From Balanoglossus misakiensis (taxonomy: Eukaryota; Animalia; Hemichordata): a stretch of DNA of 64,000 bases. This document shows, in pieces, positions 12,519-42,298 of the stretch. The notes below the pieces were generated by a model. The model was given only the letters and a program-made list of their open reading frames with translations. It did no database searches and had not been told where the DNA came from. A program made the translations under genes and the position numbers. Every line of letters begins with the position of its first letter. Within the stretch, counting starts at the first letter, position 1. The stretch is taken from assembly GCA_040954595.2 (NCBI GenBank), contig CM082577.2:14515903-14579902 (forward strand), read 5' to 3'.

Positions 12519-15500
12519 ATGCTGAATCCGTTCAGACGGGGTCAACCCAACATGAGCAGGCCTTTGATGACGTCTGATCTACTAAATTTTGACAATTTTT
12601 TTGCAGACGACGGGTCAAACCCGCCCTCTGGTCAGGGTCGATTCGGGGGAACATTCTCATCCAATCCAAACTATATCGGACATCGAAACCAGGGTCACAC
12701 TGCCACAGACACCGATTGGGTTGCCCCGAAAGATGTCTTATTGAGTCAAAGGATATTATACGACTCGATCTCGCCTGATGAAGGCGTTGTTAAAGTGGGT
12801 GGTGATAGGTTGGCTTGGTTTTGTCCCATCGCTATTTTCAATGGAAGACCCAATTTTGCAATACAGGAAATCATCGCCCCGGCTTCAGTTGTAGATAAAT
12901 GTACATCCGCGTCTACTCTGCCAACACTGGGCGTTGAAAAGCAGTCGAGACAGTATACCATGGATATGATGGGCGTTGCCATCAGTTTAGCTCCAGAGCT
13001 TATTCAAAGAGGGACTGTTAACCAGATAAGGAATGCGTACAAACTCAAGGTCAAACAGGTGGTCGACAGTATCGCAATGACACTACAGGCAGTAGTATAC
13101 AGTAATGTATTCGGTGGTCCCACACTCGAATACATGGAGTTTCGCAGGATGGGCAACGAAAGAGATGTTTCTAGAGCTAACCTATTTTATGGTACATATC
13201 AGAAAAGAATCGACAATTTTCTACTATGGAACCTGGGGCGAACAAACAAGAAAGCTGTGTTAATTGACTTGGATAACTGTTTGAATTACAGTTCGAACAA
13301 CGACGGTGATGCCGACACAATAATATGTCACCCTGTCGTCGCAGGTGTCTTGAGGGAAACTGTCGCGCCTAATCTAGGCACGCAAGAAACTCGAGAAACC
13401 TATTTTGTGAATACGTCTGATAATCACATTGTGTATAATCACCATCTTCAACCAGACCCAAACCTCTCCCACCAAGTTCATGCTCCAAATTTAAGAACAA
13501 TAGTTAATGCAAAAGTTAAGTACATTATTCCCTGTCCGGATGTACGAATAAACAATGTCAAGTCGAATCTCAGTGAACTCGAGGCCAACTTCAAATCGTT
13601 TAACGTTATAGGATATTGTCCATTACTGCAACAAATGGGTAGTCTACTGGACTTCAAACAAACCACATCTGTGGATTGGAATTCCATATACGTTACCGAC
13701 TTTGAGAAACGATACGATTCGAGGGTTACCTTGGACGAGGTGATGGAACAGGGTGGTTATTTTGTACCAGAAACATACAACGCGAGTTCTTATAACAATC
13801 TATTGAGAAGTGCAGACTTTATTGAATTGACGACCATAACACCAGCCGAGTATTATCGATCATGCACAATGCCTTTCACTGGAAAGGAGAAATCCTGCTT
13901 GTTAGATCCTAGTCGAAAAGTGTATTATGACCCGGACAGACAAACATTTCTACCCGCGTTCACTTATGGACACAGCAACGTGAGCACCTGTCCCGTCGAC
14001 AGGGGTGACATTGTCGCCGGTATGACGTTCATGTCCAGGACAATGGTTGGCCTCGGAGAGCATTGCGACGAGGAATTGTTATGCAACTATGTAAGAGACT
14101 GTCTGTCGCTGGAATGGTCTCAGGAGGATTTCGACACCCTTATGCTGTTTGATCGCACACCGTTTCACGAGGCAATGGGCGATGTGGCAGAAGTTGGCAA
14201 TACCAGTGATGGGAATGGAAGTGGAGAAGGTTCAGGTAGCCAGGGGACATTGGCCCAAAGGGTTATCAGGGACGTCACTTCTCATAGTGGCGCCACACAT
14301 TTTACCAATTACGATCAATTGCTAATCGTCCGTCATATTTGTCAGCAACGCAGATGCATCGATCGAGAAAGAGAGGAAGGTGGTCGTGCAGGTGCTACCG
14401 CTATGAACGCATTAGACTGCGCAATTGTCAACATTACTATGATTATAGAATGGGTAGACTTACTCTATGACAAATATAAAACAGTAACCAAATCCAGGCC
14501 AGATACTACACACAGTTGGTTGTTCACGCCATTGGGTCATGAGACTCTACAAAAAGTATTTCACGATGACCGCCTAGATGAAGCGGATGAGAGAGATTAC
14601 ACGCATATGTTACGCAACAAGGCTGCTCTGTACCACAATGTATTTCTGAGAGCATTTTCGCCGGTTGTATATGTTGCGGGAAATTCTTCTTTAGACGAAG
14701 CTATAGAGGCCGGCATCGTGAACGTTGTGGGGCTGGGTGACATTACACTGAACGAGGAGGTTTATCATTACAATTGTAACTTTAGTACATATTCAGCCAG
14801 GCGGACATTCAATACTATAGCTGATTCGTCATTCATACGCCCCAAGCAAAGATTTGTTATCTCCGATTTGAGTCCATTGCACTCATACAACAATGACTCT
14901 CCTGTCGATGCGGAACACTTTCTGAACCATAACTATTCCTACAGGTTGTCATGGATCTGCAGTTCGTCATACAGTCTCATGATCAAGTGTTTTACCATGA
15001 TTTTCATTAGCATGTTACAAAACCCAACCACTACTAGAGCGTTAGCAAAAGAAGGGATATATTTAAACACGGCGTTTCTTTTGTTCAGAAATGTGGTACA
15101 GCGGACATGTAGCATCGCCATGGCGCGATCTGGTAGAGAGAACAGGTTCTTGTTTTGTGGCAATAGCACTACAAATAGTTACCATAGTAATGCCACCAGT
15201 TATGTGACGAATTGTCGTTTCGAGACAAATATGGTGGACTTCGACCCGATCAATAACACCAGGGTACAGTTGCACGTGGGAGGTCTGGGTTATAACAGGG
15301 GGATGGGTTCAAAAATTAGGGACCCGTTCACGGAGGGGACGTCCGATGGTAGGGGCGACTTTGTTGTTGTACCTATGTGTCCGATCGTAGATGTTGGGCT
15401 CTGGAATCACATTCAACCTATGAACGGGCGAGTTACGTTCGAAGATGGTAATTCAAACAAAAAGGCCACGAGAATAGACACTGTCCAAGGTATTTACACC

Positions 15501-15986
15501 AATAATCCGTGGTCAACGGCTGGACTGTCAGAGGCTCAGATTATACATGGTAACATGCGACATCCCTTATGGGTTCACAATAGTAACAAGCACGGGACGT
15601 TCAAGTGTTTCTTACAGGCCAAGACACCGTCACCACAATACCAAGTTGGTATTGATGAATTTTATAGGCCCATAGATTCCAATGGTCTACAGAGAGAATC
15701 AAACATAGCTGTACAGGGTAGGCAGTACCACAACAACATTGACTGTCCATACGCTTTCAAGACTCTTAACAGAGGGTTTTATGGAATGGACGAAAATAGT
15801 AGCAATCGCTTCCAAGACGCCCTCAACGTCTCCACCGTTCGTGATGACGAAGGTTTACATCTGATGGATCCAATCACGATTCAACCGTCTGTCAAGAGAA
15901 CGGACAAGTACTACGCAGAGACTGGAATCCGTAAGAAATTCAAGCCAGACGACGCGTCGCGTCAACACAGACTAATACCTATTTAG
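12519..15986 (+). CDS. Major capsid protein (HK97-fold, herpes/mirusvirus type)
   Basis: 1155 aa; N-terminal floor-like segment (FCPI..SRQYTMDMMGVAISL..YKLKVKQVVDSIAMTLQAVVY; ADTIICHP); follows the protease-triplex genes. Confidence 0.7.
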   Translation: MLNPFRRGQPNMSRPLMTSDLLNFDNFFADDGSNPPSGQGRFGGTFSSNPNYIGHRNQGHTATDTDWVAPKDVLLSQRILYDSISPDEGVVKVGGDRLAWFCPIAIFNGRPNFAIQEIIAPASVVDKCTSASTLPTLGVEKQSRQYTMDMMGVAISLAPELIQRGTVNQIRNAYKLKVKQVVDSIAMTLQAVVYSNVFGGPTLEYMEFRRMGNERDVSRANLFYGTYQKRIDNFLLWNLGRTNKKAVLIDLDNCLNYSSNNDGDADTIICHPVVAGVLRETVAPNLGTQETRETYFVNTSDNHIVYNHHLQPDPNLSHQVHAPNLRTIVNAKVKYIIPCPDVRINNVKSNLSELEANFKSFNVIGYCPLLQQMGSLLDFKQTTSVDWNSIYVTDFEKRYDSRVTLDEVMEQGGYFVPETYNASSYNNLLRSADFIELTTITPAEYYRSCTMPFTGKEKSCLLDPSRKVYYDPDRQTFLPAFTYGHSNVSTCPVDRGDIVAGMTFMSRTMVGLGEHCDEELLCNYVRDCLSLEWSQEDFDTLMLFDRTPFHEAMGDVAEVGNTSDGNGSGEGSGSQGTLAQRVIRDVTSHSGATHFTNYDQLLIVRHICQQRRCIDREREEGGRAGATAMNALDCAIVNITMIIEWVDLLYDKYKTVTKSRPDTTHSWLFTPLGHETLQKVFHDDRLDEADERDYTHMLRNKAALYHNVFLRAFSPVVYVAGNSSLDEAIEAGIVNVVGLGDITLNEEVYHYNCNFSTYSARRTFNTIADSSFIRPKQRFVISDLSPLHSYNNDSPVDAEHFLNHNYSYRLSWICSSSYSLMIKCFTMIFISMLQNPTTTRALAKEGIYLNTAFLLFRNVVQRTCSIAMARSGRENRFLFCGNSTTNSYHSNATSYVTNCRFETNMVDFDPINNTRVQLHVGGLGYNRGMGSKIRDPFTEGTSDGRGDFVVVPMCPIVDVGLWNHIQPMNGRVTFEDGNSNKKATRIDTVQGIYTNNPWSTAGLSEAQIIHGNMRHPLWVHNSNKHGTFKCFLQAKTPSPQYQVGIDEFYRPIDSNGLQRESNIAVQGRQYHNNIDCPYAFKTLNRGFYGMDENSSNRFQDALNVSTVRDDEGLHLMDPITIQPSVKRTDKYYAETGIRKKFKPDDASRQHRLIPI

Positions 15987-16276: not shown

Positions 16277-17658
16277 CATGGTGTATTATTTGCTGACCTT
16301 ATATTGGCAAGCTTCACAAATGGTGACCCCGACGTGATGAATTCTCAAGGCATGAGTGTATTGTATTTACAATCGTGACGTTACTGGTTACCGACTCACC
16401 CTCTCCAGACAAGTGACGCACACGATCACGGCCAGTATGTATGGCAGGAAATCACACGCATTAATTCCCGAATAAAATTTGGGATAACGATTATTTAAAA
16501 CGGAATGCTTGTTTTGAGAAAGCTGCCCGTCTCGCGCATAAAAGTTCAACATATTTGAAATATCTTAAATAAAAGTGAATAAGCTTTCAATATATATATA
16601 ATGACAACAAAATGGTTTAACACGTAACAAAAATATAAATTCTGTACAAAAATTCATGAATTCTTGTCAATGAATCTCAGATATAATAAATAATGTCTAT
16701 ACAGCGTGATTTTGATTGTCTTTTCCATGTAACGTAAATACCACAACGTAGTTCTTCTCCAGGCGATGGGAAAATATAGTCTCTTGCCATGGACGAGCGA
16801 AATTTAATCTATCAGGGAAATATATCTGCTCACAAATGCGCGCCATATTGGGTGGCAAAGCGCGTCGTCGTCATCAAAAGTGGAAATCAACACTAGAACG
16901 TGAACATCGCTTTTGATGTCCGTTTCTCGAGTCACAGTTTCAAGTCTGAATACTCCAACACGACATATTAAAGCTCTGTCTCTTCCACCTCCAGTTTTGA
17001 TTGTATAAACATCGTCGCGTCCGATGGCGCGATCATTTGGTGCAGCGTTCGGTCGGGTGCGAAATTTTCCCTTCAAGACGGTGTGATTTTTTTCCTCATA
17101 CTAATTCTGTGTAACTACGAGTCTTGGCTGTCATTATGAATACGATTTCAGTTCGGCAAAAACTTCTGAAAAATACGTACTCTCCTTGTTTATCCGTAAC
17201 ATGTTGGCACTACAGTCATTTATAATTTTCAGGCTTCTGTCCCCGAATCTGTCTCTGTCGTCTTCAACTAGGAACGGTTTTAGCGGATAACTGATCTCGT
17301 TGCCCACGTAACTATAGGATAAGTACAGACATGTGAGCACGACGGCTTGTAGCTCAGACTCGGAGGTGATTTTGTCGTCGACAAAGTCCCGACATAACAT
17401 GTACACGAAGACAAGGTTTGCCGGGGTGATGAAGGCAATGTCCTGCCACCCTTGCAAGAGCAGGGACCTGTCCACTGATCGCAGCCACATTATGGCATCG
17501 TTGCCTTCGAAGTCCCGCAAGCAGGAGCATCGCCGACTGAGGAAATTTCCCAGACACTTCAGCAGTTCTCCGGTGGACGCTTGGATGGTTTTCTTGGTGT
17601 TCGGCGTTTTCACCGCCATGGTGTATTATTTGCTGACCCTATATTGGCAAGCTTCACA
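16277..17658 (+). repeat. 42-bp direct repeat (16277-16318 and 17617-17658) bracketing the captured segment
   Basis: CATGGTGTATTATTTGCTGACC(T/C)TATATTGGCAAGCTTCACA, 1 mismatch. Confidence 0.9.
17134..17619 (-). CDS. CDK5R1: CDK5 activator (p35/p39 family), N-truncated p25-like core only
   Basis: [68 protein letters not shown] matches the p35 activation domain. Confidence 0.93.
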
Positions 17659-19009: not shown

Positions 19010-19588
19010 ATGACAGAACAAACGTCAATGTCGTCTCAATTAGACCCCGAAATGTGTATTTGTCGCATATGCCAAGAAGGTGAATCGTGTGCTGAAGGCG
19101 GCATGCTTTTGATTGCACCTTGTTTATGCAAAGGTAGTCTGAAGTTTGTCCACCGTAGGTGCATCCAAACCTGGATAAGAAGCGCTCGTATCAACCGATG
19201 TGAAATTTGTAATGCACGCTTCAAAATCATGGTTGAGACTAGACCAATATCAGAATGGACATTGCCGAAGATGACCAGAACGATATGGATAAATATTGCA
19301 CTTGTGTTGTCGTGTACTGTGTGTATATTAGGCATATCATTACACATGCACCTTTTGGTGGAATCCCTATTTCTAAAGATGGATGCACTGAATACATTTT
19401 TCGTGGTGGCTTGCGTGTTGCTGGCACTTATGGCGCTGACTGCATTTGTCCTCCTAGAGACTTTTAGGTGCGTGGACGTGTATGTGTGGTTAAGAGAGAA
19501 CAACAGAGAGATAGGTGTTAAGGACTATTGCCCATCTTCTCAACAAATACATGGTGGTGATGAAGACATACGCACGAATACGGTGTAG
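19010..19588 (+). CDS. MARCH-family (RING-CH) membrane E3 ubiquitin ligase
   Basis: CRICQ..LIAPCLCKGSLKFVHRRCIQTW..CEIC followed by two TM helices. Confidence 0.92.
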   Translation: MTEQTSMSSQLDPEMCICRICQEGESCAEGGMLLIAPCLCKGSLKFVHRRCIQTWIRSARINRCEICNARFKIMVETRPISEWTLPKMTRTIWINIALVLSCTVCILGISLHMHLLVESLFLKMDALNTFFVVACVLLALMALTAFVLLETFRCVDVYVWLRENNREIGVKDYCPSSQQIHGGDEDIRTNTV

Positions 19589-19818
19589 ACACCATGTAAT
19601 TGTTCCATACTCTATTTTTGTTTTGTTCATTACGATGACGACATTGTTGTCCAATCAGTATCCTCCCTTCTCACCCCCCATGATGAGTACGGCGATTTTG
19701 ACAATGAACGAGTCACATCGTTCGTCCATGTAATGAGCCGTTGGTGACATTCACCATATATAAGCAAGAGCGATTTCAGTCACTCTCGCCAATCACAGTT
19801 TGCCTATATCAAACAACA

Positions 19819-21087
19819 ATGTCCGAACTTATCGACGTGGTTTATGGAGTTGACGGGAAAAACATCGGAGAGGTATTCCACATTCCGTACTTCTGGTTAC
19901 CCAAGTTTATACCGGCATGGGATCGTTTGCTAGAACGAACAGGAGGTGGTCAAGAGGATGGCGATCGCCGGCGCCTCATTCTGAGATACCCCTTTCCATA
20001 CAAGGTGACGTCGAAAGATGTGGATGAAATTGTCAAGTTTGTCAGCGATTGTGTACATAACTATTCAACATTTTGTCGACCATCCGATGTTCCTTGGTCG
20101 AGGTTGACAGCTGTGCTCAGGCTGGTGGACCATTACAAGGTCACTCCATACCTCGACGCTTTGGTATCTTTTATACATAAAACCTCCATGAATGCGTACA
20201 CATCCCAAACCACCCTACACATGTTAGAAGCCTATCATGACCTTGTGCATGACTTGACGGAAGATGTACTACCTGCAGCAATCGTCAGAGTGGAGATCGC
20301 CACTCAATGCGTGTTAAATGCCAATTCGTGGAATTACATTTGTTCATGTCAAAAATGTCCCGAACACCCGCGACGCGACGAAGTCGCTTTGTTATTTTGT
20401 GGACACGAGAAACAGATTCACGCCTACTGGGAAAAGATGATGTCGTGCACTCTGACAAAGAATCTACGAAAGAGTAAATGGACCCTTGCCACTTTCGCGT
20501 GTATGGTCTCTGATGGTTGCCATGGAATAGCTACGCAATTACCGCAAAGTCCATCTTATTCTACTAATTTTCGTCTGCTCTTGCATTTGTGGTTGGCGAA
20601 AGGAGGTGAAGATGTACTTGCTGAACACGTTGCCCTTCTATCGTGCCTGTGTAGACAGGATGATCTTATGAGGCGTGCAGTCATTTTACAGGGCATGTTC
20701 AAGTACTCCGGAATGACCCAGAGTGCCATCAGAGATTCTCTGAAACCTATAACATCACGGAGACGTACCATACAACAGGTATGGGCGAGCGCCGCCGATG
20801 AAACATGCTATAATTGTTTGAATACACCGCAAGCGTCAAAATGGATTCATTGGAAAACATTTCCACGCGTGGCGTGTGATGTATGCGCAGAAGAGATGTG
20901 CCGGAAATGTTACGGTACGTGCGCATTGTGTGAACGAACTTTGTGTTTCGGATGCGCTACGTTTCTTACCAATGATAGAAGAATTGAATGGCTGATGACT
21001 AATGTGAGTAGGCGAGCAATACACGGTCATGGAGTATGTGTAGATTGTAGAGGCTTTCCGGGGAAGTTGGTACCCAACAAAAACTAA
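19819..21087 (+). CDS. BTB-like protein with C-terminal multi-CxxC zinc domain (paralog of 34766-36115)
   Basis: VLRLVDHYKVTPYL BTB-like helix; W..ICSC motif; CYNC..CDVC..CRKC..CALC..CFGC..CVDC. Confidence 0.6.
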   Translation: MSELIDVVYGVDGKNIGEVFHIPYFWLPKFIPAWDRLLERTGGGQEDGDRRRLILRYPFPYKVTSKDVDEIVKFVSDCVHNYSTFCRPSDVPWSRLTAVLRLVDHYKVTPYLDALVSFIHKTSMNAYTSQTTLHMLEAYHDLVHDLTEDVLPAAIVRVEIATQCVLNANSWNYICSCQKCPEHPRRDEVALLFCGHEKQIHAYWEKMMSCTLTKNLRKSKWTLATFACMVSDGCHGIATQLPQSPSYSTNFRLLLHLWLAKGGEDVLAEHVALLSCLCRQDDLMRRAVILQGMFKYSGMTQSAIRDSLKPITSRRRTIQQVWASAADETCYNCLNTPQASKWIHWKTFPRVACDVCAEEMCRKCYGTCALCERTLCFGCATFLTNDRRIEWLMTNVSRRAIHGHGVCVDCRGFPGKLVPNKN

Positions 21088-21536
21088 CAAGACTGTCAGG
21101 AATTGTACATGGCACGCAGTAAATGAAATATTCGCGATAGAAAGAACAATAGCAATAAGAAGAAGAATTACAACAAAGTGTCGTGTCCCTAAAATAACGG
21201 AACTGTTCAACATTGATGAAGATATGAGGTCGTTACCGCAACTTAAAGATGGCAGAACTATAACAATTGCCATAATAGTTCTTTTTTTTTATTTCTTGGG
21301 TGTGTCATAACATAGGTTCTACAAAATATACGGACTCTCCTTTCAATACATGCATCGTCCAATCAGGTAAATAAACAAACAACCCATAAATGTATGGATG
21401 TCTGCGATACTGTGTACATAATTTAACATAAATAAATAAATACATATCCGTATAAATGCCCACTTGTCTGTGTCCATCTTCGTATTTATATTGCAATTTT
21501 ATCACGGGTCAGAGCCTTATAACGTTAAACCTGGTC

Positions 21537-24500
21537 ATGAATGTAGGAAGGCGGCGTGTTTACCTGTTAAAACTAGAAGTCAAAGGGAGAGGAGTCAACG
21601 CATCCGACCTCTGTACCATCTTCGGCAAACTTCCCAATGGGCGTAGTATCGCGTTGGACATACTCGACCCAGTATATAGGATTTATTTGAATCCCATCAA
21701 CGAGGTTAGGGACGAGGAAGAAGTGTGCGCCCTCATTCATCAGTATACCAGCACGTTTTCCAATAACTTCAGCGTTGGTAAAACGTCAAAGGTAATCGGC
21801 AATGGTTACGCGGGGGATTCTCGACTGCCATTTTGGTACGTCGAGTCGTCGGAAAATGCGGTTGTTAAACAGGTGCAAAAAAATCTACCACGCTCCATTT
21901 TCAATTTTTTTATGGACGGCTGTGGAAAGGCCTATTTGGACGTAGCGGCCAATATGAACATCGGGGGTGTTGGTTGGCACTGGATTAAGTCGTCAAGATA
22001 CGTAACGGGATGCAAATGCCATTCGTGGTATGGCAAAGAACATGATCATGCCACTGTGAGTGATACCCACTCCATTGAGCCCCAACGAGAAGGCGAAAGT
22101 AGTCCACCACCACCCATTAACATTCTTCAACTGAAAGTTCATTGCTATCCAGACGGTGTAATCGCATTTATTACCTGTTCGTTGTTACGATGGGCAAAAG
22201 ATTTGACTTGTCTGTTTAATAATACATTCCGTAATTGTACCGTTGTGAAGTTTAGAACCACGATGTATGGTGGTGATATCTCAAATGTAGTAAATTGCAG
22301 GGATGAAGGTAATGTGTTACGCGCATTCACCAAAATCATCACTACCTGTGACTATGACTTTTTATGTGGATATTTTTTGGAAAAGGAACAGTTAAGAGTG
22401 TTAAAGGAGAGAAGTTGTCTTCACGGGCTCAACTTGATAAACCCTTTATTAATCAGGGATATTCGCCACACGCCTTTCATCAACAGGTGGGATAATGACC
22501 CACGCGGTATTGGCTTGATCGACATATGTACTGACAAACACGCGGATGGTCCGGACGCCTACAAATACATCAAAGACACTGTATTTAACAAAGGCTTCCT
22601 GAACACATACTTATCAACTTGCGAAGCGGCTACTATATTCTGTAGCCGACTAACTCACAAGAAGTCAAATGTAGATATTATACAGGTACCATACATGGAT
22701 TTTTTTGAGTCAGCTATGACTCGTAAGGCTAAACAACTTGGGTACGTCTTTGCATGCAGGGAAATCGGAGGAAGCAATGCGACGACGAGTCATTCTGAAT
22801 ATGAGATTGAAGCAGATCGAGGTCAAGGTTGTCAAGGCGGTTTGTTTCTCACGCCGGTTCAAGGGTTACACGTGGGCAATGCAGAATTGAGAGATTTTAA
22901 AAGCATGTACGGTTCCATAATAGTTGCATTTAACATCGACATCACCACTAGTTTGCAAGAATCACGCGCGGGTTTATTAAATGATGTAATTGAGATACCA
23001 GGTGGCTACAACTTTGTTAGCCCAAATGTTCGGCAGGGGTTACTACCGTCTATAGTTTCAAATCTTGTCGCGCAACGGGAACACTTCCAGAAAATTGCCC
23101 AGAGCAACAACGAAAACGGGAGTTGGTACGAAATGCAACAAATGGCACGGAAACAATTGATTGTGGGAGCTTACGGAGTCAATTTACGTCAGAGTATATT
23201 CACAAGCCCGTGTGTGGCTAAGGCCATTACATCCACTGGTAGATTCCTCTTTGAACGGATGAGAGTAACAGCCGCGTCATTCACCCACCCACATTTATTG
23301 ACGACACCCAGTGTCCTATTTGGAAATGCAGATTCTCTGATGACCAGTTTCCTGCCAGCACGTGAATTGTCTAACGTCGAATGGACCGAAGTTTTCATGG
23401 ATATTGGACAGTGTTTCCACGACGACATTCGTAAAGTAGTTCAAACCATGGGCGCGAATATAGATGCGCGTTTATTGCGGTTTGAGTCGAAAGGGCATGC
23501 AAAAATAGTAATGTGTACGAGTCGCAAACAACAGTATGTGATGTGCATTAGGTCAACTTCCAAAAAAGGATGTTGTTTAGTTGTCAAAGGGTTTGTATCG
23601 AACTCTACAAACTGCCATCCCTTGGTGAGAAACGTGGAAAGATGTATGCTGTCACTCCTGTTTGAAGGTCATGTATTGCTTAGGTCTGTAGAATCTGGGC
23701 AACTGTCAACACTTCACCCAAGTGAATTGTCCACACGCTCGCAACTGATATATGAAGCGTACGTAGCATCATCTGGGGTGTGGGTGAAGGTTGGAGATGC
23801 TATAAACCAAGATACTGGTGTTAAGAACTCCTTTCGTTTGCGAGATAATTTAGGCAGAGAATTGTGCGAACGCCTTTTTGACGAGGACGGCATTCCGATA
23901 CTCACCACTGACAGACTCAGAGAAATAAGGTCTGAAGTGGAGACGGTTGTGTTGTACACGTTAAACAGAGTCATAATGTTGCAAGAAGACACGCACCTGT
24001 TGATAAAACATTTGCCACCGAATGCTAACCCTGGTGCAAGGTCGACGTTGGAAAAACAATACATGCAATTTCACGGGAGATTGCCTTGTGATATATTATA
24101 TGTGAATACCAAAGAAGATGGACCAATGCACCCTCTTTTGGCTGTCTTCCAACAGAAAACACTAGAGACAGATGACACAATTGCATCGATAAAAAAGACC
24201 TTTATTGAGGGGGGTGACGAAGGTGGTCCGTATTCCATTATGAATGTTATGAGGCCCAACGTCAAGACATTACACGGAGTATTGTGCATGGAAACAGAAT
24301 CAACTGTGCAAAATCAGTTAAGAGTACAAAGACAGTTTCGGAAACGATTCGATTCTGTCCTCGCTATGTCCTCTAAGAAAGTCGAACACCCCGTGTGCAA
24401 TAATGAAGAGGAATATGTGATGACAAAATTGTTGAATTTTACCAACTGTCCGGATTGTAAAGTTATCACTGTAGATCGAGCTAATCGCGACTACAACTAC

Positions 24501-24740
24501 ACCGACATGTTCGGAACTGATGCGATAATCCGGAAGCATAATTTGGTTTTATTCAATGTATGCAAACAAAGTTCGCGTGTGTATTTCATATCCAATTGTA
24601 AGGATGTCCAGTGTGTAGGCGTATACAAATTTGCCACCTTGGTGAATCAATTGAAAATACTAACTGCACTTAAAAACAAGGAAGCAATGGTAAACAAAGT
24701 GTCAACTGTTTTGACTGAACGTCTCACGAAATCACAATGA
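21537..24740 (+). CDS. Family B DNA polymerase, Pol-delta-like, with degenerate exonuclease and polymerase motifs
   Basis: QGGLFLTP, DFKSMYGSIIVAFNI (motif A), GLLPSIV, KQLIVGAYG (B), ITSTGR, FGNADS (C), LRFE, VVKG; C-terminal CPDC..CKDVQC. Confidence 0.85.
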   Translation: MNVGRRRVYLLKLEVKGRGVNASDLCTIFGKLPNGRSIALDILDPVYRIYLNPINEVRDEEEVCALIHQYTSTFSNNFSVGKTSKVIGNGYAGDSRLPFWYVESSENAVVKQVQKNLPRSIFNFFMDGCGKAYLDVAANMNIGGVGWHWIKSSRYVTGCKCHSWYGKEHDHATVSDTHSIEPQREGESSPPPPINILQLKVHCYPDGVIAFITCSLLRWAKDLTCLFNNTFRNCTVVKFRTTMYGGDISNVVNCRDEGNVLRAFTKIITTCDYDFLCGYFLEKEQLRVLKERSCLHGLNLINPLLIRDIRHTPFINRWDNDPRGIGLIDICTDKHADGPDAYKYIKDTVFNKGFLNTYLSTCEAATIFCSRLTHKKSNVDIIQVPYMDFFESAMTRKAKQLGYVFACREIGGSNATTSHSEYEIEADRGQGCQGGLFLTPVQGLHVGNAELRDFKSMYGSIIVAFNIDITTSLQESRAGLLNDVIEIPGGYNFVSPNVRQGLLPSIVSNLVAQREHFQKIAQSNNENGSWYEMQQMARKQLIVGAYGVNLRQSIFTSPCVAKAITSTGRFLFERMRVTAASFTHPHLLTTPSVLFGNADSLMTSFLPARELSNVEWTEVFMDIGQCFHDDIRKVVQTMGANIDARLLRFESKGHAKIVMCTSRKQQYVMCIRSTSKKGCCLVVKGFVSNSTNCHPLVRNVERCMLSLLFEGHVLLRSVESGQLSTLHPSELSTRSQLIYEAYVASSGVWVKVGDAINQDTGVKNSFRLRDNLGRELCERLFDEDGIPILTTDRLREIRSEVETVVLYTLNRVIMLQEDTHLLIKHLPPNANPGARSTLEKQYMQFHGRLPCDILYVNTKEDGPMHPLLAVFQQKTLETDDTIASIKKTFIEGGDEGGPYSIMNVMRPNVKTLHGVLCMETESTVQNQLRVQRQFRKRFDSVLAMSSKKVEHPVCNNEEEYVMTKLLNFTNCPDCKVITVDRANRDYNYTDMFGTDAIIRKHNLVLFNVCKQSSRVYFISNCKDVQCVGVYKFATLVNQLKILTALKNKEAMVNKVSTVLTERLTKSQ

Positions 24741-25247
24741 GTGTCATACAATGGATGAGAAGGGTCGTGATAATACTACTAATAATAATATATATATGCA
24801 GTCGCTTTAATTGGTATGTTGGTTTTCGTATAATAAAGTGTATTGCAAATAGAACAGTCCAGAATAGTCTTCTGCGAGTGTAAATTAGCATACACATAAT
24901 ACCATATTAGCTGTCTAATGGCGTGGTTTCATTGTCAGAACAAAGAATATACAATAAACAATATATCCCTAGAAACATCGTATTTTTAACTCGCATTTAA
25001 TATCAAGTAACATTTTCAACAGATAATGTGTACATTGTGTTGTGTATTTCAAATGTTTTGTTTTATTTCGGGAGGTGTCGATGTTTAGAGTGTTCCTACA
25101 GAGAAACACTTGCATATAAAAATAGAGACTCAATATACTACATACAAAACACCACAGCCTATTTGTTATCCTATATCGTCTTCTTCGGTTGACTTTTGAC
25201 GTAGACAAATCTGCGATATGTTTTTTTTTCCATACTCGCCCCTCTTA

Positions 25248-28200
25248 TCACTTGACTGTTATCTGGTTTAGATTTTGGTCAAAGTTGTGACTCAACATAG
25301 ATTTGACATATGGAACGAGAGTGGTCAAATTTCTTTTGCTTTTGGTGACAACGATGTACTTAGCACTCCCTTTAGTGAAGTCTATCAGATGCTCATTCGT
25401 TGACACAAAACAGAGCGGGATCATTGCATCGTGCCGGTCTACAAATTTTACATTTCGAGTTTTACCCAGTAAAAGTATCAATCTGAACATAGTGGGTGTG
25501 GATGTGTTAGGGTCATGCGGAATCACAACTGGATAAAACGTTGCGACTTTAGTAGTCGCATGCCCCCTACACATTGCAGCCACTCGACTGAATTTGTTTA
25601 GTTCGCTGTCTCGGTGTCCGTTGTCATCGCGGTAGCACATAAACTGCCTCGCCTCTTCTAACATGACCGAGAATGATGGTTGTGGGTCGAAAAAGTCTGT
25701 CATGATGTTCTTGAATAAACTGTCTGTGTAAGAAGGGAGTCGTCTGTAAGCAGACGACACAAACGAGACGAAAGGACGTCCGTTTATCGCTAAGTCTACA
25801 TAGTTATCCCTACATGGCGCGTCGATCGTAACCCCTTTGCTTCGTAGCCGATGCGCTTCTTTCAATGCGTCCCTTTGTGTCTGTAAATACCGCACTATAT
25901 CCTGGCTCTCCCTTAACTGGCGAGATAAATCGCGCACTGTAACCTCGTGTTTATCGCAGCCGTCATGCGCCTTCTTTAGTCTGTCAATTTCAGCAGCTCT
26001 CTCGGCAGACAACTGTCGAATCGCTTTATTTTCCTTTCTCAGTGAGTTTACCAATGATTCCAAATCATGTTCGGATGAAACTTCCAAACATACTGTCTGC
26101 TCTATATTGGAGGTTTGGGATCCGGAAGGATCAATCCTACTCGCTTGACTGTCAATCGCACGAACACCCAGTATTCCTTTGGCATTTTCTAGTTCTCGTA
26201 GGCTTTTGTCACGGGTTTCAATAATCTTTTGTTGTTCTCTGATCTCGTTTTCAAAATGTCTCCTTAATTCGGCGATCTGAGATGTATGACTTTTTTCCAT
26301 CACTTTAACTTTATTTTCTAGTAGCCGTTTATCGCTTGCAATTTCCTGCATGCGCCTGTCCCGTGCGATATAATATTCCGGGGACCCTGCCTGAGATTGA
26401 CTATCCGACAAGTCACTATCTTGACCCTGCCCAATCCGGCTTTCGTCTCTAAAGGCCCGTGTATTTAAACTGTCCCTTTGTTCAGCTTGGATAAAGGAAG
26501 TTTCCAGCGAGTGTAATTTCGTTCGAAATTCACTATTTTCATCATTCAGGTCATTCGCCTTTCGTTTCCAGTCATTAAGATCGCCGATCGCATCGTCTAG
26601 CCTTAACTGAATTTCATTTAATTTTTGTTCAAATTCCCTTTGCTGCATAATGTTGTCTTCATTATTTCGTGCGACTAGTTCGACTTGCTCAAGCAGCTTG
26701 TTGCGCAAGGCTTCGTTCTCCGATACGAGGCCAGCATTCTCTTTTTGTTGTAACTCGTTTGACTTGACCGTGGATGTTATTTCAGTATTCTTGTCGCCAA
26801 GTTCTCGAGATATTTGTATATTTTCCTGACGGAGATTACGAAATCGACTATTTGTATCATCAAACTGACGTCTAAGTGACTCCAAGTCCATACGGAGCTG
26901 TCGATTGTTTGTCTCCGTCTGTCGATGTTGTTTGCTAAGTGCGTCTACATGTTCGTTTGCTACCACGACTTTGTCTTCCAGTTGGTCACGATCACGCTGG
27001 TACATATCACGCTCGATTCGCAGTTGGGCTATCTGTTTGTACGTGATGTCTGCTGTACTCTCCGCCTTCGCTTTCATATCCTGATTGTCTGACTTCAAGG
27101 TCTCAATTTCCTCCCTCAAATCGTCAACTTCTGCATTTGCTTCATCTAGTTGTTGTTTTAAGGCATTTCTGGTGTCCACAGACTGCCGAACTTTCATTTC
27201 TAAAGTATCAATCTCTCTCCTGGTTTTGGACTCTTTCTCTTTAAACTCTCTCAAACTTTTGTTGTCACTTAATGATTGTGAATTCAGTTCCTGTAACTTC
27301 TCTCGCTGTCGTTGATTATTCTGTTCTGATACGGCCTTTTCGTGAACGAATCGCTCAATTTTCTTGTTCAAGTAGTCGTTTTCTTCTCGTATTGCGTTTT
27401 CCTGTTCGGTTCTTTTTGAGATTTCAGCGCGCATTTGATTATACTCCATTACCTTTTCATGTAGCTCAGCCTTTAAACGCTTTGCTTCACCCATGTAACG
27501 ATTAGTCTCTCCATCAATCGACCCTGACTGTTTCCCTCTACCATTCGATTGCAGTTGTTCATTCTCGACCGATAGCTGGTAAATTTTCGCCTGAGCGTTT
27601 TTGTTACTGACAAAGACCTCTGTCCGTAATTTACTACAGTCGATATTCAACCGGGTAACCTGGGCTTGTAACTTCTCTTCCGCTTCTTTTTGTTTGGAAT
27701 TTGTTTCATTAGCATGTTGTAGACTGAGGCGAACATCCTCTAACTCGGTCTCAAATTTACGAATGTCTGACTGTCGTTCTTCTAATAAATTTTCTCTGAT
27801 TTCCAATTTATGCTCTAAAGAGTCAACGACCGATCGCGTGTCCGTTAACTCCGTTTGTAACCTCTCATTGTCTTGTTTGAGGTTGGAACGTGTAGTATCA
27901 TGTTGGACCTTTTGCGCATTAAGATCCCCTTGTAATTGGTTCTTTTCAGAGACCAATGCGGACAACTTAGTTTCTAGGCGCCTAATTTGGTGATTCAATT
28001 GTTCATTTGCGGCTTGTTCCTTGTGTAGAAGCTCCTTGGTAAATGCATTCTCACTAGACACACGCTTTACGTGTTGAGAAGTGTCTGTGAGATCACTGTC
28101 GATGGTATTCATTTTGGACGTGGCCGTCGCAAGTTGATCCTTCAGCGCATCAATCTCCTTCAACGCATCTGAAAGTTTCTGTTGGGTCTCCTCATGTTTA

Positions 28201-31200
28201 TCGTGTCTTGTTGACAGACTGGTGTTTTGCTCAGAAACAAGTCGTTCAAATTCTCTTGTCCGTTCCAACAGTTGTCCGTTGGTCTCAATCAATTTCCTTC
28301 TGTCTTCATTCAGATCCACGATATCGCGCTCGAGGTTTCGAATCAAATTAAAACTTTCATCATTGGAGCGTTCTATATCATCTTGCAATTTCTGTTTTAT
28401 CGCCTCAATGTTGTCTAATGACTTTCTCATACTTTCAAGCTCGCGCTGTTTCGCTCTGTTTTCTTCTTGAGTACGTACAATGCGTTTGGTCAACTCGCCA
28501 TTTTCGTTTTCTGCAATTTCTAATTTTTGTTTGGCCATTTCCATAGCATATAGTGACTGTTTCATAGAGTCAAGCTCGCGCTGTTTCGCTCTGTTTTCTT
28601 CTTGGGTACGTACATTGCGTTTGGTCAACTCGCCATTTTCGTTTTCCGCAATTTCTAATTTTTGTTTGGCAATTTCCATAGCATATAGTGACTGTTTCAT
28701 AGAGTCAACTTCTCGCTGTTTCGCCTCAACTAACGAATTTTGTTCTGTTTGTATACGTTCGATGTCCCGACTCAACGTGTCTTTTTCGTTCTCTACAACC
28801 ACCAGTTCCCTTTTTGCCGCCTCTACAGTTTCTAGTGACTGTTTCGCACTTTCGACCGCTCGCTGTTTCGCCAAAACTAAAGTTTTGTTTTCTGCTTGGA
28901 TACGTCCAATCTCTTCCACCAATTTGGCTGCCTCATTCTCTGCACATACTAATTTCCCTTTCATATCCTGCATGTTACGCTTATCCGCTGTGATTAGTGC
29001 CTCGTTGTCCGCTTTAAGATGCTCAATGTCATTTTCTAAATTTTCTATACGCGCCAACAATGATTTTATTTTTTGTTTGGCGTCAGTTTGACTCGTTTGT
29101 TCAGTTTGACCGTCGTTGACCCCCTCCGATACACGAAGAGTTCTGCAATTTTCTTCAGATAGTTCCCCATTTACAGAAAGCCTACTGCCACTCTCTCGAG
29201 GTCGCGGCAATCTTATTGGTTCATAATAATCAGTAAGAGATTTCAAGTCATCCTCCAGTGTATCAGTTTCAGTACCGGATACAAGGGGTATGTCAAATAT
29301 AGGATCCTCACCAACACTGGCGTTGCTGTTCGACGTATAGTGTATCAGTGACGGGGACATTGTTTGTGGTTTTGGAGTATGTAAGGTGTCGGGTGTATCG
29401 ACTGGAATCTCAACAAGCGAAGGCCGGGACTGTTTAGGCGACGCATGTCTTGGAGGATGTAAGGTGTCGGGTGTATCGACTGGAATCTCAACAAGCGAAG
29501 GCCGGGACTGTTTAGGCGACGCATGTCTTGGAGGATGTAAGGTGTCGGGTGTATCGACTGGCCTCTGAACAAGCGAAGACCGGGACTGTTTAGGCGACGA
29601 GTACAAGTCGTCGAGGCCACTCGACGTATCTTGAGGACAGACTGTCTGTAACAGTGAAGTAATGGTATCATCGAAAGGCGCGGTAGTTGAGGGCGCCGTT
29701 CGTGGTTTAGGGACAGGTAATGCCACCAGCGAGTCTGATGCAGGAGACGAAGTAGGCAACGATGATAGGTCTCTATGCTTAGTAACCTTCGAATCTTCTC
29801 GCGAGTCCAATGGAAGAGTGGTGCGTGTTTCTTCGGGGATGGTAATCTGCAAGGGTGTGGACGCTGATACCGGTGGGAATACGACGCCGTCAGTTGTGGA
29901 GGTGTCGACAAGAGAGGAAAACTGCTCCCAATTGTCAATTTTCTCAAGGGGATGGTCGCCAGGGGTTTGCGCATTAGACGAAGATGTCGATTTGCGTGAG
30001 AGTGCGTCAGAACCATTTCCGTCCACTCGTGTTGGAACATTTTGTACTAATTCACTAACGTCTTCGCTGTGGATCAATTCCTGTAAACCGGAATATCCGC
30101 CACTGTCTGCTTGATTTACATCTGATATAGCGGACGCCGTGTCTGAAGTATGTGTCATTTGTTCATCAGTGTCAACTACACGTATCGGGTCACTTGACTG
30201 GTCGTCGTATTGTTCTGTCAGTTCTGATAGGGATGCCTGGCAAATTTCCCCGGCTGGTTCAACATTTACAATGTTTTCAGGATGATACTCATATTCGTCT
30301 CTGTATCTGTCCAAAGTATTGTCAGTCACTCTGTCGTCGAACCCTCGAGGTGAAGGGTCCGTTTCAAGCACATTCTCGTATTGACTATTTGAAAAGTCAA
30401 CGTATCTTTGGTCATTGTCTGACAGAATGCCCGCATTGGCGCGTCCTGTCTTATATCTTCTATCCTCCGTAAACCTCGTGTCGCACAAAGCACCATATAC
30501 AATGGCGACAAGATTACCCTCAGTGTGTCCACATTTTAGAGTCCCCTGTATATTATTACCAAAGAGTGTTGGTAAGTCATCTGTAGCATTATCTGCCAAT
30601 AATTCTCTTAGGGCAGTTTGTTCTAAAGTACCACTTAAGACGTTATGTACATCTTTTTCGATTCGTATGAAACGTGCAAGACTCCTAAATAATTGATTAA
30701 AATTTATGTCCATGGACGTTTCTTTGTACTGAGCAAAAGTTGAATTAAGTGCCCGTGCAGCAGAATGCATGGCTACTCTCAATTGTTCAAACAATGGAAT
30801 ATTTATTGAGTCTGGTGTACCTAAACACTCTGGAAAGGTTGATAGGAAGTGCGGCTTTGTCTGGTGATCGTCGAATAAACCATTTATCAGGTCGAGCAGC
30901 TCGTTTCTATTCGTATGACTGTCGCTGGCAAGGTCCAAGATCGTTTCACAATTGGCGCACAAGTGACTCCACAGATATGGATATAAAGACAACACGCCCC
31001 AGACATTTGGAATTTCAGATAAGATTAATTGGAGTGTATGTTTTGACAGAATTATGTAAAACGTTGGCATTTGACTTTTGACATCCTGTTCGATATATTT
31101 AAAAAAATGATACATCGTACCCCTCTCATATTTCAAAAGCACACTGCACACATTCTCCAACCTATCCAAATCAACCTTTTCTATGCCTTCCACTACAAAG

Positions 31201-31988
31201 CTGTCCTCATTTTTAGCTAAATACCGATGTGCACCATAAGCGGTGTACGTGAAATTTTCGGATTTTACTCTGTGTGTGTGTTTGCTGGGGTTAGCGTCTG
31301 TTGATTTGGAATGGTAAGATGTGGTTCCTGGAAAACTCCGCATACAAGAGAAACATACGGCCTTGCGCGTCAACACGCGACATATGGCATTTTTTTTTAA
31401 GTCGTACGCCACATACAAATTTTTTGTAGAGTCTTTTTGCAACAAGAAGCCACCTCCTAGGACCAACATGTAGACGAGCCTATTGAACGTGGATGGTGGC
31501 AGGCTGCACGTCGACTTTGACCTGACATCTTTGTATATTGTTAACAGACTTTTGTACAATCTAAGCAGTTCGACGCAACATGGCGTGTCGCCTATTTTAC
31601 TCTCACGAACGGAGCACAATGTCTCGACGAATGCGTCGGTAAATCCACGTGCTAGAAATCTATTTTGGTCCGCAGCATGGACTATGAAACCATCGTCAAA
31701 CCCCGTTGAGATTATTCTATTTAACCTACACACGGGATTGGTGCTTGAAACCAGTTCGTCTTCTATCCTGTTAGTGGGTGTACACACCCTCTTGCCTATC
31801 TGGAGGTGACTTTGCCCATCTTCATCGTCTGAATGTGAACATTCACTCTCATTGGGCCGTTTTCGAGAAATCTCCTCTGGACATTCCATTAAAGGTTCAA
31901 ATGTTAATGCCCAAATACAAAACATAATTGCCCAAATACAAAACATTAGTATTAAGGTTTTATTATTATCAAATCTAGGTGACCACAT
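25248..31988 (-). CDS. Very large (~2200 aa) protein with S/T/P-rich linker and ~1000 aa coiled coil; possibly structural/tegument
   Basis: Uninterrupted ORF, heptad-rich E/K/Q/L segment; true start uncertain. Confidence 0.8.
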   Translation of the reverse strand: MWSPRFDNNKTLILMFCIWAIMFCIWALTFEPLMECPEEISRKRPNESECSHSDDEDGQSHLQIGKRVCTPTNRIEDELVSSTNPVCRLNRIISTGFDDGFIVHAADQNRFLARGFTDAFVETLCSVRESKIGDTPCCVELLRLYKSLLTIYKDVRSKSTCSLPPSTFNRLVYMLVLGGGFLLQKDSTKNLYVAYDLKKNAICRVLTRKAVCFSCMRSFPGTTSYHSKSTDANPSKHTHRVKSENFTYTAYGAHRYLAKNEDSFVVEGIEKVDLDRLENVCSVLLKYERGTMYHFFKYIEQDVKSQMPTFYIILSKHTLQLILSEIPNVWGVLSLYPYLWSHLCANCETILDLASDSHTNRNELLDLINGLFDDHQTKPHFLSTFPECLGTPDSINIPLFEQLRVAMHSAARALNSTFAQYKETSMDINFNQLFRSLARFIRIEKDVHNVLSGTLEQTALRELLADNATDDLPTLFGNNIQGTLKCGHTEGNLVAIVYGALCDTRFTEDRRYKTGRANAGILSDNDQRYVDFSNSQYENVLETDPSPRGFDDRVTDNTLDRYRDEYEYHPENIVNVEPAGEICQASLSELTEQYDDQSSDPIRVVDTDEQMTHTSDTASAISDVNQADSGGYSGLQELIHSEDVSELVQNVPTRVDGNGSDALSRKSTSSSNAQTPGDHPLEKIDNWEQFSSLVDTSTTDGVVFPPVSASTPLQITIPEETRTTLPLDSREDSKVTKHRDLSSLPTSSPASDSLVALPVPKPRTAPSTTAPFDDTITSLLQTVCPQDTSSGLDDLYSSPKQSRSSLVQRPVDTPDTLHPPRHASPKQSRPSLVEIPVDTPDTLHPPRHASPKQSRPSLVEIPVDTPDTLHTPKPQTMSPSLIHYTSNSNASVGEDPIFDIPLVSGTETDTLEDDLKSLTDYYEPIRLPRPRESGSRLSVNGELSEENCRTLRVSEGVNDGQTEQTSQTDAKQKIKSLLARIENLENDIEHLKADNEALITADKRNMQDMKGKLVCAENEAAKLVEEIGRIQAENKTLVLAKQRAVESAKQSLETVEAAKRELVVVENEKDTLSRDIERIQTEQNSLVEAKQREVDSMKQSLYAMEIAKQKLEIAENENGELTKRNVRTQEENRAKQRELDSMKQSLYAMEMAKQKLEIAENENGELTKRIVRTQEENRAKQRELESMRKSLDNIEAIKQKLQDDIERSNDESFNLIRNLERDIVDLNEDRRKLIETNGQLLERTREFERLVSEQNTSLSTRHDKHEETQQKLSDALKEIDALKDQLATATSKMNTIDSDLTDTSQHVKRVSSENAFTKELLHKEQAANEQLNHQIRRLETKLSALVSEKNQLQGDLNAQKVQHDTTRSNLKQDNERLQTELTDTRSVVDSLEHKLEIRENLLEERQSDIRKFETELEDVRLSLQHANETNSKQKEAEEKLQAQVTRLNIDCSKLRTEVFVSNKNAQAKIYQLSVENEQLQSNGRGKQSGSIDGETNRYMGEAKRLKAELHEKVMEYNQMRAEISKRTEQENAIREENDYLNKKIERFVHEKAVSEQNNQRQREKLQELNSQSLSDNKSLREFKEKESKTRREIDTLEMKVRQSVDTRNALKQQLDEANAEVDDLREEIETLKSDNQDMKAKAESTADITYKQIAQLRIERDMYQRDRDQLEDKVVVANEHVDALSKQHRQTETNNRQLRMDLESLRRQFDDTNSRFRNLRQENIQISRELGDKNTEITSTVKSNELQQKENAGLVSENEALRNKLLEQVELVARNNEDNIMQQREFEQKLNEIQLRLDDAIGDLNDWKRKANDLNDENSEFRTKLHSLETSFIQAEQRDSLNTRAFRDESRIGQGQDSDLSDSQSQAGSPEYYIARDRRMQEIASDKRLLENKVKVMEKSHTSQIAELRRHFENEIREQQKIIETRDKSLRELENAKGILGVRAIDSQASRIDPSGSQTSNIEQTVCLEVSSEHDLESLVNSLRKENKAIRQLSAERAAEIDRLKKAHDGCDKHEVTVRDLSRQLRESQDIVRYLQTQRDALKEAHRLRSKGVTIDAPCRDNYVDLAINGRPFVSFVSSAYRRLPSYTDSLFKNIMTDFFDPQPSFSVMLEEARQFMCYRDDNGHRDSELNKFSRVAAMCRGHATTKVATFYPVVIPHDPNTSTPTMFRLILLLGKTRNVKFVDRHDAMIPLCFVSTNEHLIDFTKGSAKYIVVTKSKRNLTTLVPYVKSMLSHNFDQNLNQITVK
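28435..28724 (-). repeat. 135-bp (45 aa) coding tandem repeat, about 2 copies
   Basis: AKQRELDSMKQSLYAME(I/M)AKQKLEIAENENGELTKR(N/I)VRTQEENR. Confidence 0.85.
29379..29599 (-). repeat. 78-bp (26 aa) coding tandem repeat, about 2.8 copies
   Basis: Units start at 29379, 29457, 29535; SPKQSRPSLVEIPVDTPDTLHPPRHA. Confidence 0.9.
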
Positions 31989-31989
31989 T

Positions 31990-34429: not shown

Positions 34430-34765
34430 CAGCGTTTCATCTCCATTAGTTTGCCAACTGAAAGCGAGCTTGTATCTCCTTGCTATTCAGTGTCTGTCCT
34501 GGTGAATACTGCGATGACCACTTGCATTAGTCGTACTGACATAATCTATTTATAAGAACCACATCGCATGCATATAAAACATATCACATAGCGCCAAATA
34601 CTATGCTGTCAGTGTTAGTCGAGTGGACCTCGGATTTAATTGACGTGTCATCTGTGATATCACTATTTCGGGGAGTGAACATTAATTGTGTCACCGTCTT
34701 GTAATCTTGGATGTCACCGTTTCACTTGGTGTATAATTACCTTGTGTCAGTTTATTGTAAATAAG

Positions 34766-36115: not shown

Positions 36116-36247
36116 AAAGATGACACATGTATCGAGGGTAAACCCACAGACTGGAATGTCTCACCTGCGTCCCATACGCATTTTTGTCGTATGTTTTGTA
36201 AGAAGACAGACAGTGTATATTTTGTACTTGACGTTTATTTATCACCT

Positions 36248-39513: not shown

Positions 39514-39633
39514 GTCTTTGTGTTGCGCCATCGACGGAAAGAGCAAACATTATGTGATGCGACTATTGGTGATGTCTACACAACCCGGCAATATAAAATC
39601 AGTAGACGTCCATCACATTTGATCATTCAGCCC

Positions 39634-42206: not shown

Positions 42207-42298
42207 TTCGTGTAATAATTGTGCAATGCACCAACTTGTTTAATATGTATCTTTATGTTTGTTGCACTCGGATGTAAAAAAAAGTCCACTCATTACAC

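Follow-up and report, generated by a model that had tools for sequence, protein, structure and literature searches.

The 64-kb stretch of DNA analysed here, hereafter the window (contig CM082577.2 of assembly GCA_040954595.2, deposited under the hemichordate Balanoglossus misakiensis), carries an intact gene for a family B DNA polymerase (PolB) at 21537..24740 on the forward strand (+). Its open reading frame (ORF), a PF00136 match, a sequence match to yeast Pol delta, an AlphaFold2 model and the fold matches of that model together identify a Pol-delta-like polymerase whose exonuclease is dead and whose polymerase motifs are altered. In its dense, long and intron-less ORFs on both strands, the window resembles a large double-stranded DNA (dsDNA) virus of a metazoan, and the host of this virus was probably an animal. 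An earlier note on this DNA had described the gene as a Pol-delta-like PolB with eroded catalytic motifs, possibly an intermediate on the way to the inactivation seen in the herpesviral protein UL8.

The forward-strand frame is unbroken from 21456 to 24740 (1094 amino acids, aa, counted from its first ATG), and from the ATG at 21537 the ORF encodes 1067 aa plus a stop codon. We took 21537 as the start because the Met at which the full-length relative P0001 begins aligns with this ATG, and because a candidate promoter element inferred about 80 nt 5' of it, TATAAA at 21451..21456 (+), overlaps the first in-frame ATG at 21456, which probably lies inside the promoter. A candidate poly(A) signal, AATAAA at 24832..24837 (+), was likewise inferred about 90 nt past the stop codon in an AT-rich region. 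Given that the flanks are AT-rich, both elements are only consistent with a Pol II-type transcription unit. Sequencing-run contigs covering part of the gene were identical to it and showed no variants; the sequencing runs listed for it were two DNA runs from one sample, possibly the source of the assembly itself, and included no RNA run.

Residues 423–720 of the product matched PF00136 in Pfam with an E value of 3.3e-20 and 72.7 bits, against a cut-off of 23. The best sequence match in the PDB was yeast Pol delta (3iay; HMMER, E 3.3e-14), aligned over an N-terminal stretch (residues 20–203 against yeast Pol3 131–324) and a palm stretch (residues 432–605), while human Pol delta (1.2e-12), Pol alpha (1.6e-9) and UL30 of HSV-1 (herpes simplex virus 1; 3.7e-9) also matched. 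AlphaFold2, given a 61-row alignment as input, returned a model with a predicted local distance difference test score (pLDDT) of 85.5 and a predicted template modelling score (pTM) of 0.84, in which the N-terminal, exonuclease, palm, fingers and thumb domains of the PolB fold are all present. The N-terminal domain (aa 1–190; 21537..22106, +) is Pol-delta-like, as indicated by the first HMMER stretch, and was modelled with pLDDT mostly between 75 and 97. Foldseek searches of the PDB placed yeast and human Pol delta on top (3iay, 1e-38), followed by HSV-1 UL30 (5.7e-35), Pol alpha, the African swine fever virus (ASFV) polymerase and E. coli Pol II. VIA-align left E. coli Pol II and yeast Pol delta tied (Z 25.2–25.6, 640–810 residues aligned), with Pol delta at Z 25.2–25.3 over 758–809 residues, the ASFV polymerase at Z 24 and HSV UL30 at Z 23.5. 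Given the PF00136 match and a Z of 25 for Pol delta among the top structures, the description as a Pol-delta-like PolB holds. Among the predicted viral structures of BFVD, the matches listed were all generic PolBs with 9–17% identity, the best being an unnamed entry (13%) and the Ranid herpesvirus 2 polymerase ranking 35th, and the ESM Atlas returned generic PolB clusters only. Judging by these predicted viral structures, as listed, known viruses appear to hold no close relative of the polymerase.

Residues 191–400 (22107..22736, +) form an exonuclease-fold domain that lacks the catalytic residues; the domain was recognised in alignments and is confidently folded in the model, and PF03104, the PolB exonuclease family, was undetected in Pfam at E values up to 1. 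HMMER and two multiple alignments agree that the ExoI motif FDIE is replaced by L199-KVH202 (nt 22131–22142, +) and the ExoII motif GYN..FD by G278-YFLEKEQ285 (nt 22368–22391, +), where KEQ aligns with the canonical NFD. The carboxylates that define a proofreading PolB (DxE in ExoI; the Asp of (N)x2-3(F/Y)D in ExoII) are thus absent. They are also replaced in P0001, and in a second relative, P0002, the exonuclease domain is mostly deleted, roughly over the equivalent of residues 200–330. That the polymerase is proofreading-dead, as had been proposed, is therefore well supported.

In the polymerase domain, every motif change listed in the earlier note was recovered in the HMMER comparison with Pol delta and in two multiple alignments. 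Motif A, DFxSLYPS in canonical enzymes, reads D453-FKSMYGS460 (22893..22916, +) and keeps the metal-ligand Asp and the steric-gate Tyr458; in the numbering of yeast Pol3 (7kc0), D453, M457 and Y458 correspond to D608, L612 and Y613. Pol epsilon naturally has Met where Pol3 has Leu612, and in Pol delta this substitution is a known mutator, so Met457 is no sign of inactivity. In motif B (KxxxNSxYG; here K539-QLIVGAYG547, 23151..23177, +), the Lys, Tyr546 and the Gly are kept, and Asn-Ser has become Val-Gly. Motif C, canonically YGDTDS, reads F595-GNADS600 (23319..23336, +); its first Asp is lost (N597) and its metal-binding D599 is kept. The KKRY motif has become K664-QQY667 (23526..23537, +), with K664 and Y667 invariant in an 11-row alignment (A1). 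Across these 11 PolBs, D453, F454, S456, Y458, S460, R514, K539, G547, G596, D599, S600, K664 and Y667 are all invariant. Both Asp residues that serve as metal ligands in PolBs, the one in motif A (D453, equivalent to Pol3 D608) and the second in motif C (D599), are thus retained, as the earlier note had stated. The canonical YxDTDS with its first Asp is not found here; DTD occurs in 55 of the 58 aligned rows that cover motif C, and the three rows without it are our polymerase, P0001 and P0002, with Asn at the first Asp position in the former and His in the latter two. According to one study, it is the second Asp of motif C that holds the metal in solved PolB structures, the first being directed away from the active centre (PMC8764526).

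These altered motifs are shared by a small family. A scan of 1.84 billion representative proteins returned 552 matches at E values up to 1e-3, three of them at E values up to 1e-30. P0001 (1048 aa) is 46–47% identical across its full length (E about 1e-292), P0002 (745 aa) is 34–37% identical, and P0003 and P0004 are two fragments. Both P0001 and P0002 carry DFKSMYGS in motif A and K(L)LIVGA(F/Y)G in motif B, with FGHADS and CGHTDS, respectively, in motif C and KQQY and KQRY at the KKRY site. Given that a full-length relative carries the same changes, chance is ruled out as their source. The longest runs identical in all three proteins are RDFKSMYGSI (motif A, the longest), GGLFL, LIVGA (motif B) and DSLMT (motif C), and identity to P0001 reaches 56–59% in palm and fingers, compared with 44% in the N-terminal and exonuclease domains. 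Because the longest identical runs are the polymerase motifs, and because palm and fingers are more conserved than the N-terminal and exonuclease domains, we infer purifying selection on what would be a working, non-canonical active site. A metagenome contig search with alignment A4 recovered only two contigs, L001 and L002, which hold two pieces of the P0002 gene. The P0002 virus is related to that of the window; a gene neighbouring its PolB is 43% identical to the window ORF at 41148–42239.

Beyond this family, the polymerase belongs to a clade of 17 metagenomic PolBs that we divided into the query family Q (three members), group Y (P0006, P0008, P0009, P0023) and group X (P0005, P0007, P0011, P0013, P0021, P0026, P0034, P0169–P0171). 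In the 61-row alignment, ExoI DxE was absent from 16 of the 59 rows covering the motif, namely three of Q, four of Y, seven of X and two unrelated rows (P0046, P0055). A 22-row alignment, made with more care, joined the 17 clade rows, including three further group X members, with five Pol-delta-like rows: ExoI DxE was kept in none of the 17 clade rows versus all five Pol-delta-like rows, whereas motif C DTD was kept in 14/17 versus 5/5, only family Q being without the first Asp. A KK(R/K/C)Y-type or KKKQY motif was counted in 15 of the 17 clade rows; at this site our polymerase and P0001 have KQQY and P0002 KQRY. The clade is marked by an insertion that follows KxxY, is rich in beta structure and measures about 85 aa (about aa 701–790; 23637..23906, +; modelled as strands within 713–781), being present in 13 of its 17 rows and in none of the five Pol-delta-like rows. 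Val at the Asn position of motif B is common to our polymerase and group X, while RDF in motif A is common to it and three of the four group Y rows, the fourth, P0023, having WDF.

A quick, unrooted maximum-likelihood tree (LG+G4; 58 rows, 747 columns; fragments P0003, P0004 and P0022 omitted) placed the 14 Q, X and Y rows on one side of a branch with a Shimodaira–Hasegawa-like approximate likelihood ratio test (SH-aLRT) value of 100, with 100 for Q, 100 for X and 25 for Y. The Pol-delta-like rows fell outside Q+X+Y, so that in this tree the polymerase does not group with Pol delta itself, and no PolB with an intact ExoI fell inside the clade. Long-branch attraction appears unlikely as the sole cause of the clade because the insertion, the C-terminal tail and motif variants are shared by its members. 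The simplest history would be that proofreading was lost once, deep in the clade, while canonical polymerase chemistry was kept, and that the first Asp of motif C was lost later in the branch of our polymerase. Judged by their motifs, the members of groups X and Y appear to be the regular polymerases of the elements that carry them.

No source gave a name for any part of this clade, including a collection of about 15 billion proteins; the look-up of names covered 19 relatives. The next matches of group X beyond its own kin were eukaryotic Pol delta (E about 1e-13), and a profile search with A1 recovered only P0001 and a crustacean Pol alpha. IMG/VR viral contigs searched with our polymerase, P0006 and the group X and Y alignments yielded no clade relative, nor did scans of genome contigs with P0008 and P0021, and a tblastn search of a phage collection gave no match to our polymerase. 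The clade marks a group of viruses missing from current references.

The C-terminal domain (aa 951–1067; 24387..24737, +) carries four conserved Cys followed by a long helix, and it is recognised both in alignment and by the Pol delta holoenzyme chains that align with it. The Cys pairs are C971-PD-C974 (nt 24447–24458, +) and C1021-KDVQ-C1026 (nt 24597–24614, +), and all four are present in 7/7 Q and Y rows, in 0/10 X rows, and aligned with Cys in 5/5 Pol-delta-like rows. Structural alignment of this domain was obtained only with Pol delta holoenzyme chains, reaching model residue 1049 for 6p1h, 1058 for 6tny and 1057 for 9ekb, while the VIA-align alignments of all other polymerases end near model residue 944. 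The tail had been described as CysB-like, and the four Cys and their conservation bear this out in part; however, only four of the eight CysA/CysB cysteines are conserved and zf-C4pol, the Pol delta zinc finger, had no Pfam match at E values up to 1, even though the model aligns with Pol delta through the C-termini. In the tail, one module of four Cys is conserved instead of a complete pair of CysA and CysB.

Compared with known systems, Pol delta (Pol3, POLD1; 3iay, 6p1h, 7kc0, 6tny, 9ekb) is the best sequence and Foldseek match and shares the aligned C-terminal Cys. In contrast to Pol delta, our polymerase lacks the ExoI and ExoII carboxylates, has altered B, C and KKRY motifs and the insertion of about 85 aa, shares only 14–18% identity and belongs to a separate clade. 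The replicases of HSV-1 (UL30), ASFV, medusavirus, EhV-86 and baculovirus have the same PolB architecture, but none is a close relative, and these enzymes, as far as is known, keep ExoI–III and YGDTDS. Groups X and Y resemble our polymerase in the loss of ExoI DxE and in the insertion, group Y also in the four-Cys tail, but differ from family Q in keeping motif C DTD and the KK(R/K/C)Y-type or KKKQY motif.

The best functional analogue, by pattern of substitution, is archaeal PolB2, or Dpo2 of Sulfolobus, which, as two studies describe, has either no Exo motifs or strongly altered ones and carries other residues in place of the Tyr and first Asp of motif C (PMC8764526, PMC7390963). The same sources report that Dpo2, long predicted to be dead, matches the replicase Dpo1 in nucleotide incorporation while lacking exonuclease activity (PMC8764526, PMC7390963). 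Our polymerase has the same combination of lost Exo motifs and a substituted first Asp in motif C, a resemblance in pattern only. Dpo2 is archaeal, about 555 aa long, without an exonuclease domain or Cys tail, and acts as a damage-inducible translesion enzyme beside a replicase, whereas our polymerase groups with Pol-delta-like viral PolBs and has eukaryotic Pol delta as its nearest named relatives.

Taken together, these comparisons favour a polymerase that cannot proofread but is still competent in catalysis, and that most likely replicates its virus instead of being a dead scaffold of the UL8 kind, a reading to which we give a probability of roughly 0.45. Catalysis would continue with a remodelled second shell, in which the first Asp of motif C has become Asn or His, the Asn of motif B Val, and KKRY KQQY, probably at the cost of a change in fidelity or in the metal preferred. 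Accuracy would in that case depend on the selection of nucleotides, on mismatch repair by the host or on proofreading supplied in trans. The tail with its four Cys may bind metal and dock a partner, as the C-terminal domain of Pol delta docks its B-subunit.

Several observations weigh against this interpretation. The Lys four residues after the finger Arg514, whose role is known from RB69, is absent from family Q in the 22-row alignment, and several second-shell losses coincide in this family, namely the first Asp of motif C, the Asn-Ser of motif B and two basic positions in KKRY. Scans of the window recognised no gene for a helicase, a primase or a clamp near the polymerase, and the search for other PolBs spans 64 kb of a probably larger genome. 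The tree was flagged for odd composition and long branches, that of P0023 among them. To our knowledge, the well-studied replicases of large eukaryotic dsDNA viruses all proofread, so that a sole replicase with a dead exonuclease would be unusual; in our literature search, which most subscription journals lay beyond, no such virus was described as having an exonuclease-dead PolB for its polymerase.

Another possibility is that the gene encodes a specialised second polymerase, active and of low fidelity like Pol zeta, Pol alpha or PolB2/Dpo2, while a canonical proofreading PolB outside the window performs bulk replication. It might bypass lesions, extend mismatches or primers, or introduce mutations deliberately, and an error-prone or primer-extending polymerase, as raised in the earlier note, is possible. 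In keeping its C-terminal Cys domain the protein is reminiscent of Pol zeta, which shares its B-subunit with Pol delta, and the window covers only part of the genome. Furthermore, the motif pattern is that of the translesion extender PolB2/Dpo2, which lacks the Exo motifs and has replaced both the Tyr and the first Asp in motif C (PMC8764526, PMC7390963), and Pol alpha and Pol zeta are active despite inactivated Exo domains, as stated in the available text of PMC7544198. A partner polymerase was nevertheless sought in vain: none of the 35 other ORFs of at least 150 aa in the window is a second PF00136 gene, a profile search of its 679 six-frame ORFs of at least 40 aa found no second PolB (next best E 0.88), and none was found in 10.7 kb of contigs (111 ORFs) from the P0002 virus. 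Nor does the clade contain a PolB with intact ExoI as a possible partner lineage, and the polymerase motifs of the nearest kin, groups X and Y, are canonical, as would suit the regular polymerases of their elements. We regard a specialised second polymerase as rather unlikely.

A catalytically inactive PolB derivative, acting as a scaffold or accessory subunit in the manner of UL8, poxvirus F12 or the C-terminal half of Pol epsilon, seems to us more doubtful still. Several catalytic-site positions are non-canonical at the same time, and docking might be all that the conserved C-terminal domain is for. UL8, moreover, resembles our polymerase in its PolB fold, its non-canonical motifs and its origin in a large nuclear DNA virus, and Kazlauskas and Venclovas reportedly recognised it in 2014 as an inactivated PolB. 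However, UL8, F12 and the C-terminal half of Pol epsilon have lost the catalytic residues in question, whereas our polymerase keeps both metal-ligand Asp (D453, D599), the steric-gate Tyr458, the finger Arg514 and the motif B Lys539, all invariant, together with other nucleotide-binding residues. A degenerating site would also be expected to vary, while nowhere is the family more conserved than in the altered motifs, which are its longest shared runs. The top structural matches are active polymerases (Pol delta, E. coli Pol II, HSV UL30, Pol alpha), and in the HSV fork complex 9yc9 the chain matched by VIA-align was the polymerase UL30, not UL8. UL8 was absent from the 50 PDB sequences matched at E values up to 1 and from the 50 rows each of BFVD, Foldseek and VIA-align matches listed, beyond which a match may still exist. 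The proposal of a UL8-like inactivation intermediate is not supported. Exapted dead PolBs are, on the other hand, an established theme in large DNA viruses according to the available part of PMC4304020, while PolB2, predicted dead on similar grounds, is active (PMC8764526, PMC7390963), and the accessible text of PMC13030845 describes UL8 as not detected in alloherpesviruses.

Least probable by far is a recently captured, decaying host Pol delta gene without a working viral role: the best cellular match is indeed Pol delta, including the N-terminal and C-terminal Cys domains, and the window holds other genes of host type (a CDK5 activator and an animal-type ribonucleotide reductase, RNR, small subunit), but identity to Pol delta is only about 14–18% in structural alignments, all 1067 codons are intact, related viruses hold intact relatives of 47% and 34% identity, and the clade is separate from the Pol-delta-like rows.

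Returning to a competent, proofreading-dead replicase, a bolder version of it can be sketched, which we consider unlikely as a whole. An uncharted lineage of large eukaryotic dsDNA viruses would replicate with a Pol-delta-derived polymerase that lost proofreading long ago; in the branch of our polymerase the active centre would have been rebuilt around a single motif C Asp, and the four-Cys tail would plug into the accessory subunits of host Pol delta, borrowing processivity and perhaps proofreading in trans. The docking to host subunits is speculation. Exonuclease-dead PolBs are a known kind of enzyme, and what is new here is the unnamed viral clade and the single-Asp motif C. If active, the polymerase would be a natural test of how much of a PolB active site is dispensable, and if it is the sole replicase, it would show how the lack of intrinsic proofreading is tolerated by a genome of 64 kb or more. 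As with PolB2, the case is also a warning that eroded motifs are by themselves no proof of a dead polymerase.

The surroundings of the polymerase gene contain further genes related to those of animals and to nucleotide metabolism. The animal-type RNR small subunit lies at 36685–37704 (Pfam 1.6e-97), with mouse R2 as its best PDB match, and a deoxynucleoside kinase was recognised at 6516–7097. The CDK5 activator (p35/p25) core is encoded by a 161-aa ORF at 17134–17619 (−), matches PF03261 with an E value of 8e-87 and is about 70% identical to human p25. By sequence it looks host-derived, although carried in a virus; we found no literature report of a viral CDK5 activator in a search that most subscription journals lay beyond. 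An 85-aa stop-to-stop frame at 42695–42949 (−) encodes a divergent H3-like histone fold (PF00125, 1.5e-9; best PDB matches H3 variants, about 3e-5). A RING-variant (MARCH-like) protein is encoded at 19010–19588 (+; PF12906, 4.6e-13), and weaker RING-finger matches lie at 133–1050 (+) and 50068–54015 (−), which suggests several genes of ubiquitin-ligase type in the window. Beside the PolB of the P0002 virus lie two F-box/leucine-rich repeat (LRR) proteins, a Death-domain protein and a Bcl-2-like protein (L001 3538–7450 and 5230–5760; L002 3–527), and these F-box/LRR, Death-domain and Bcl-2-like genes likewise appear to point to a metazoan host.

Among the remaining ORFs, PHROGs assigned no family to 30 of 31, the PolB match apart, while the ORF at 31852–33258 had a weak match to a family of unknown function (E 0.0033). 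The 1155-aa ORF at 12519–15986 (+) has ESM Atlas features nearest to HK97-type phage major capsid clusters, with a score of 0.91, below the stated recognition level, a weak lead from which a herpes- or mirus-like capsid would be no more than conjecture; it had no phmmer match in the PDB, and its single-sequence AlphaFold2 model reached a pLDDT of 28.9. DUF4419 is spread over two successive ORFs, with profile positions 1–195 at 43681–44721 (+) and 249–303 at 44770–45180 (+), a split that could reflect an intron, a frameshift or a broken gene. Directly downstream of the polymerase gene, on the opposite strand, a 2246-aa ORF (25248–31988, −), for which no informative family was found, has long coiled-coil stretches, internal protein repeats and two DNA repeats (135 bp × 2.1 at 28435–28724; 78 bp × 2.9 at 29372–29599). 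A Cys-rich ORF at 19741–21087 (+) adjoins the gene on its upstream side and is a distant paralog of another at 34688–36115 (+), with 20% identity over 358 aa (E 5e-9). In-frame tandem DNA repeats with 95–96% matches occur at 40368–40894 within the ORF at 39520–40944 (96 bp × 5.5) and at 51426–51975 within the ORF at 50068–54015 (135 bp × 4.1). Finally, non-coding tandem repeats occupy intergenic stretches at 36203–36663 (168 bp × 2.8), 42301–42605 (128 bp × 2.4) and 56106–56334 (68 bp × 3.4), and are candidate regulatory or origin regions.

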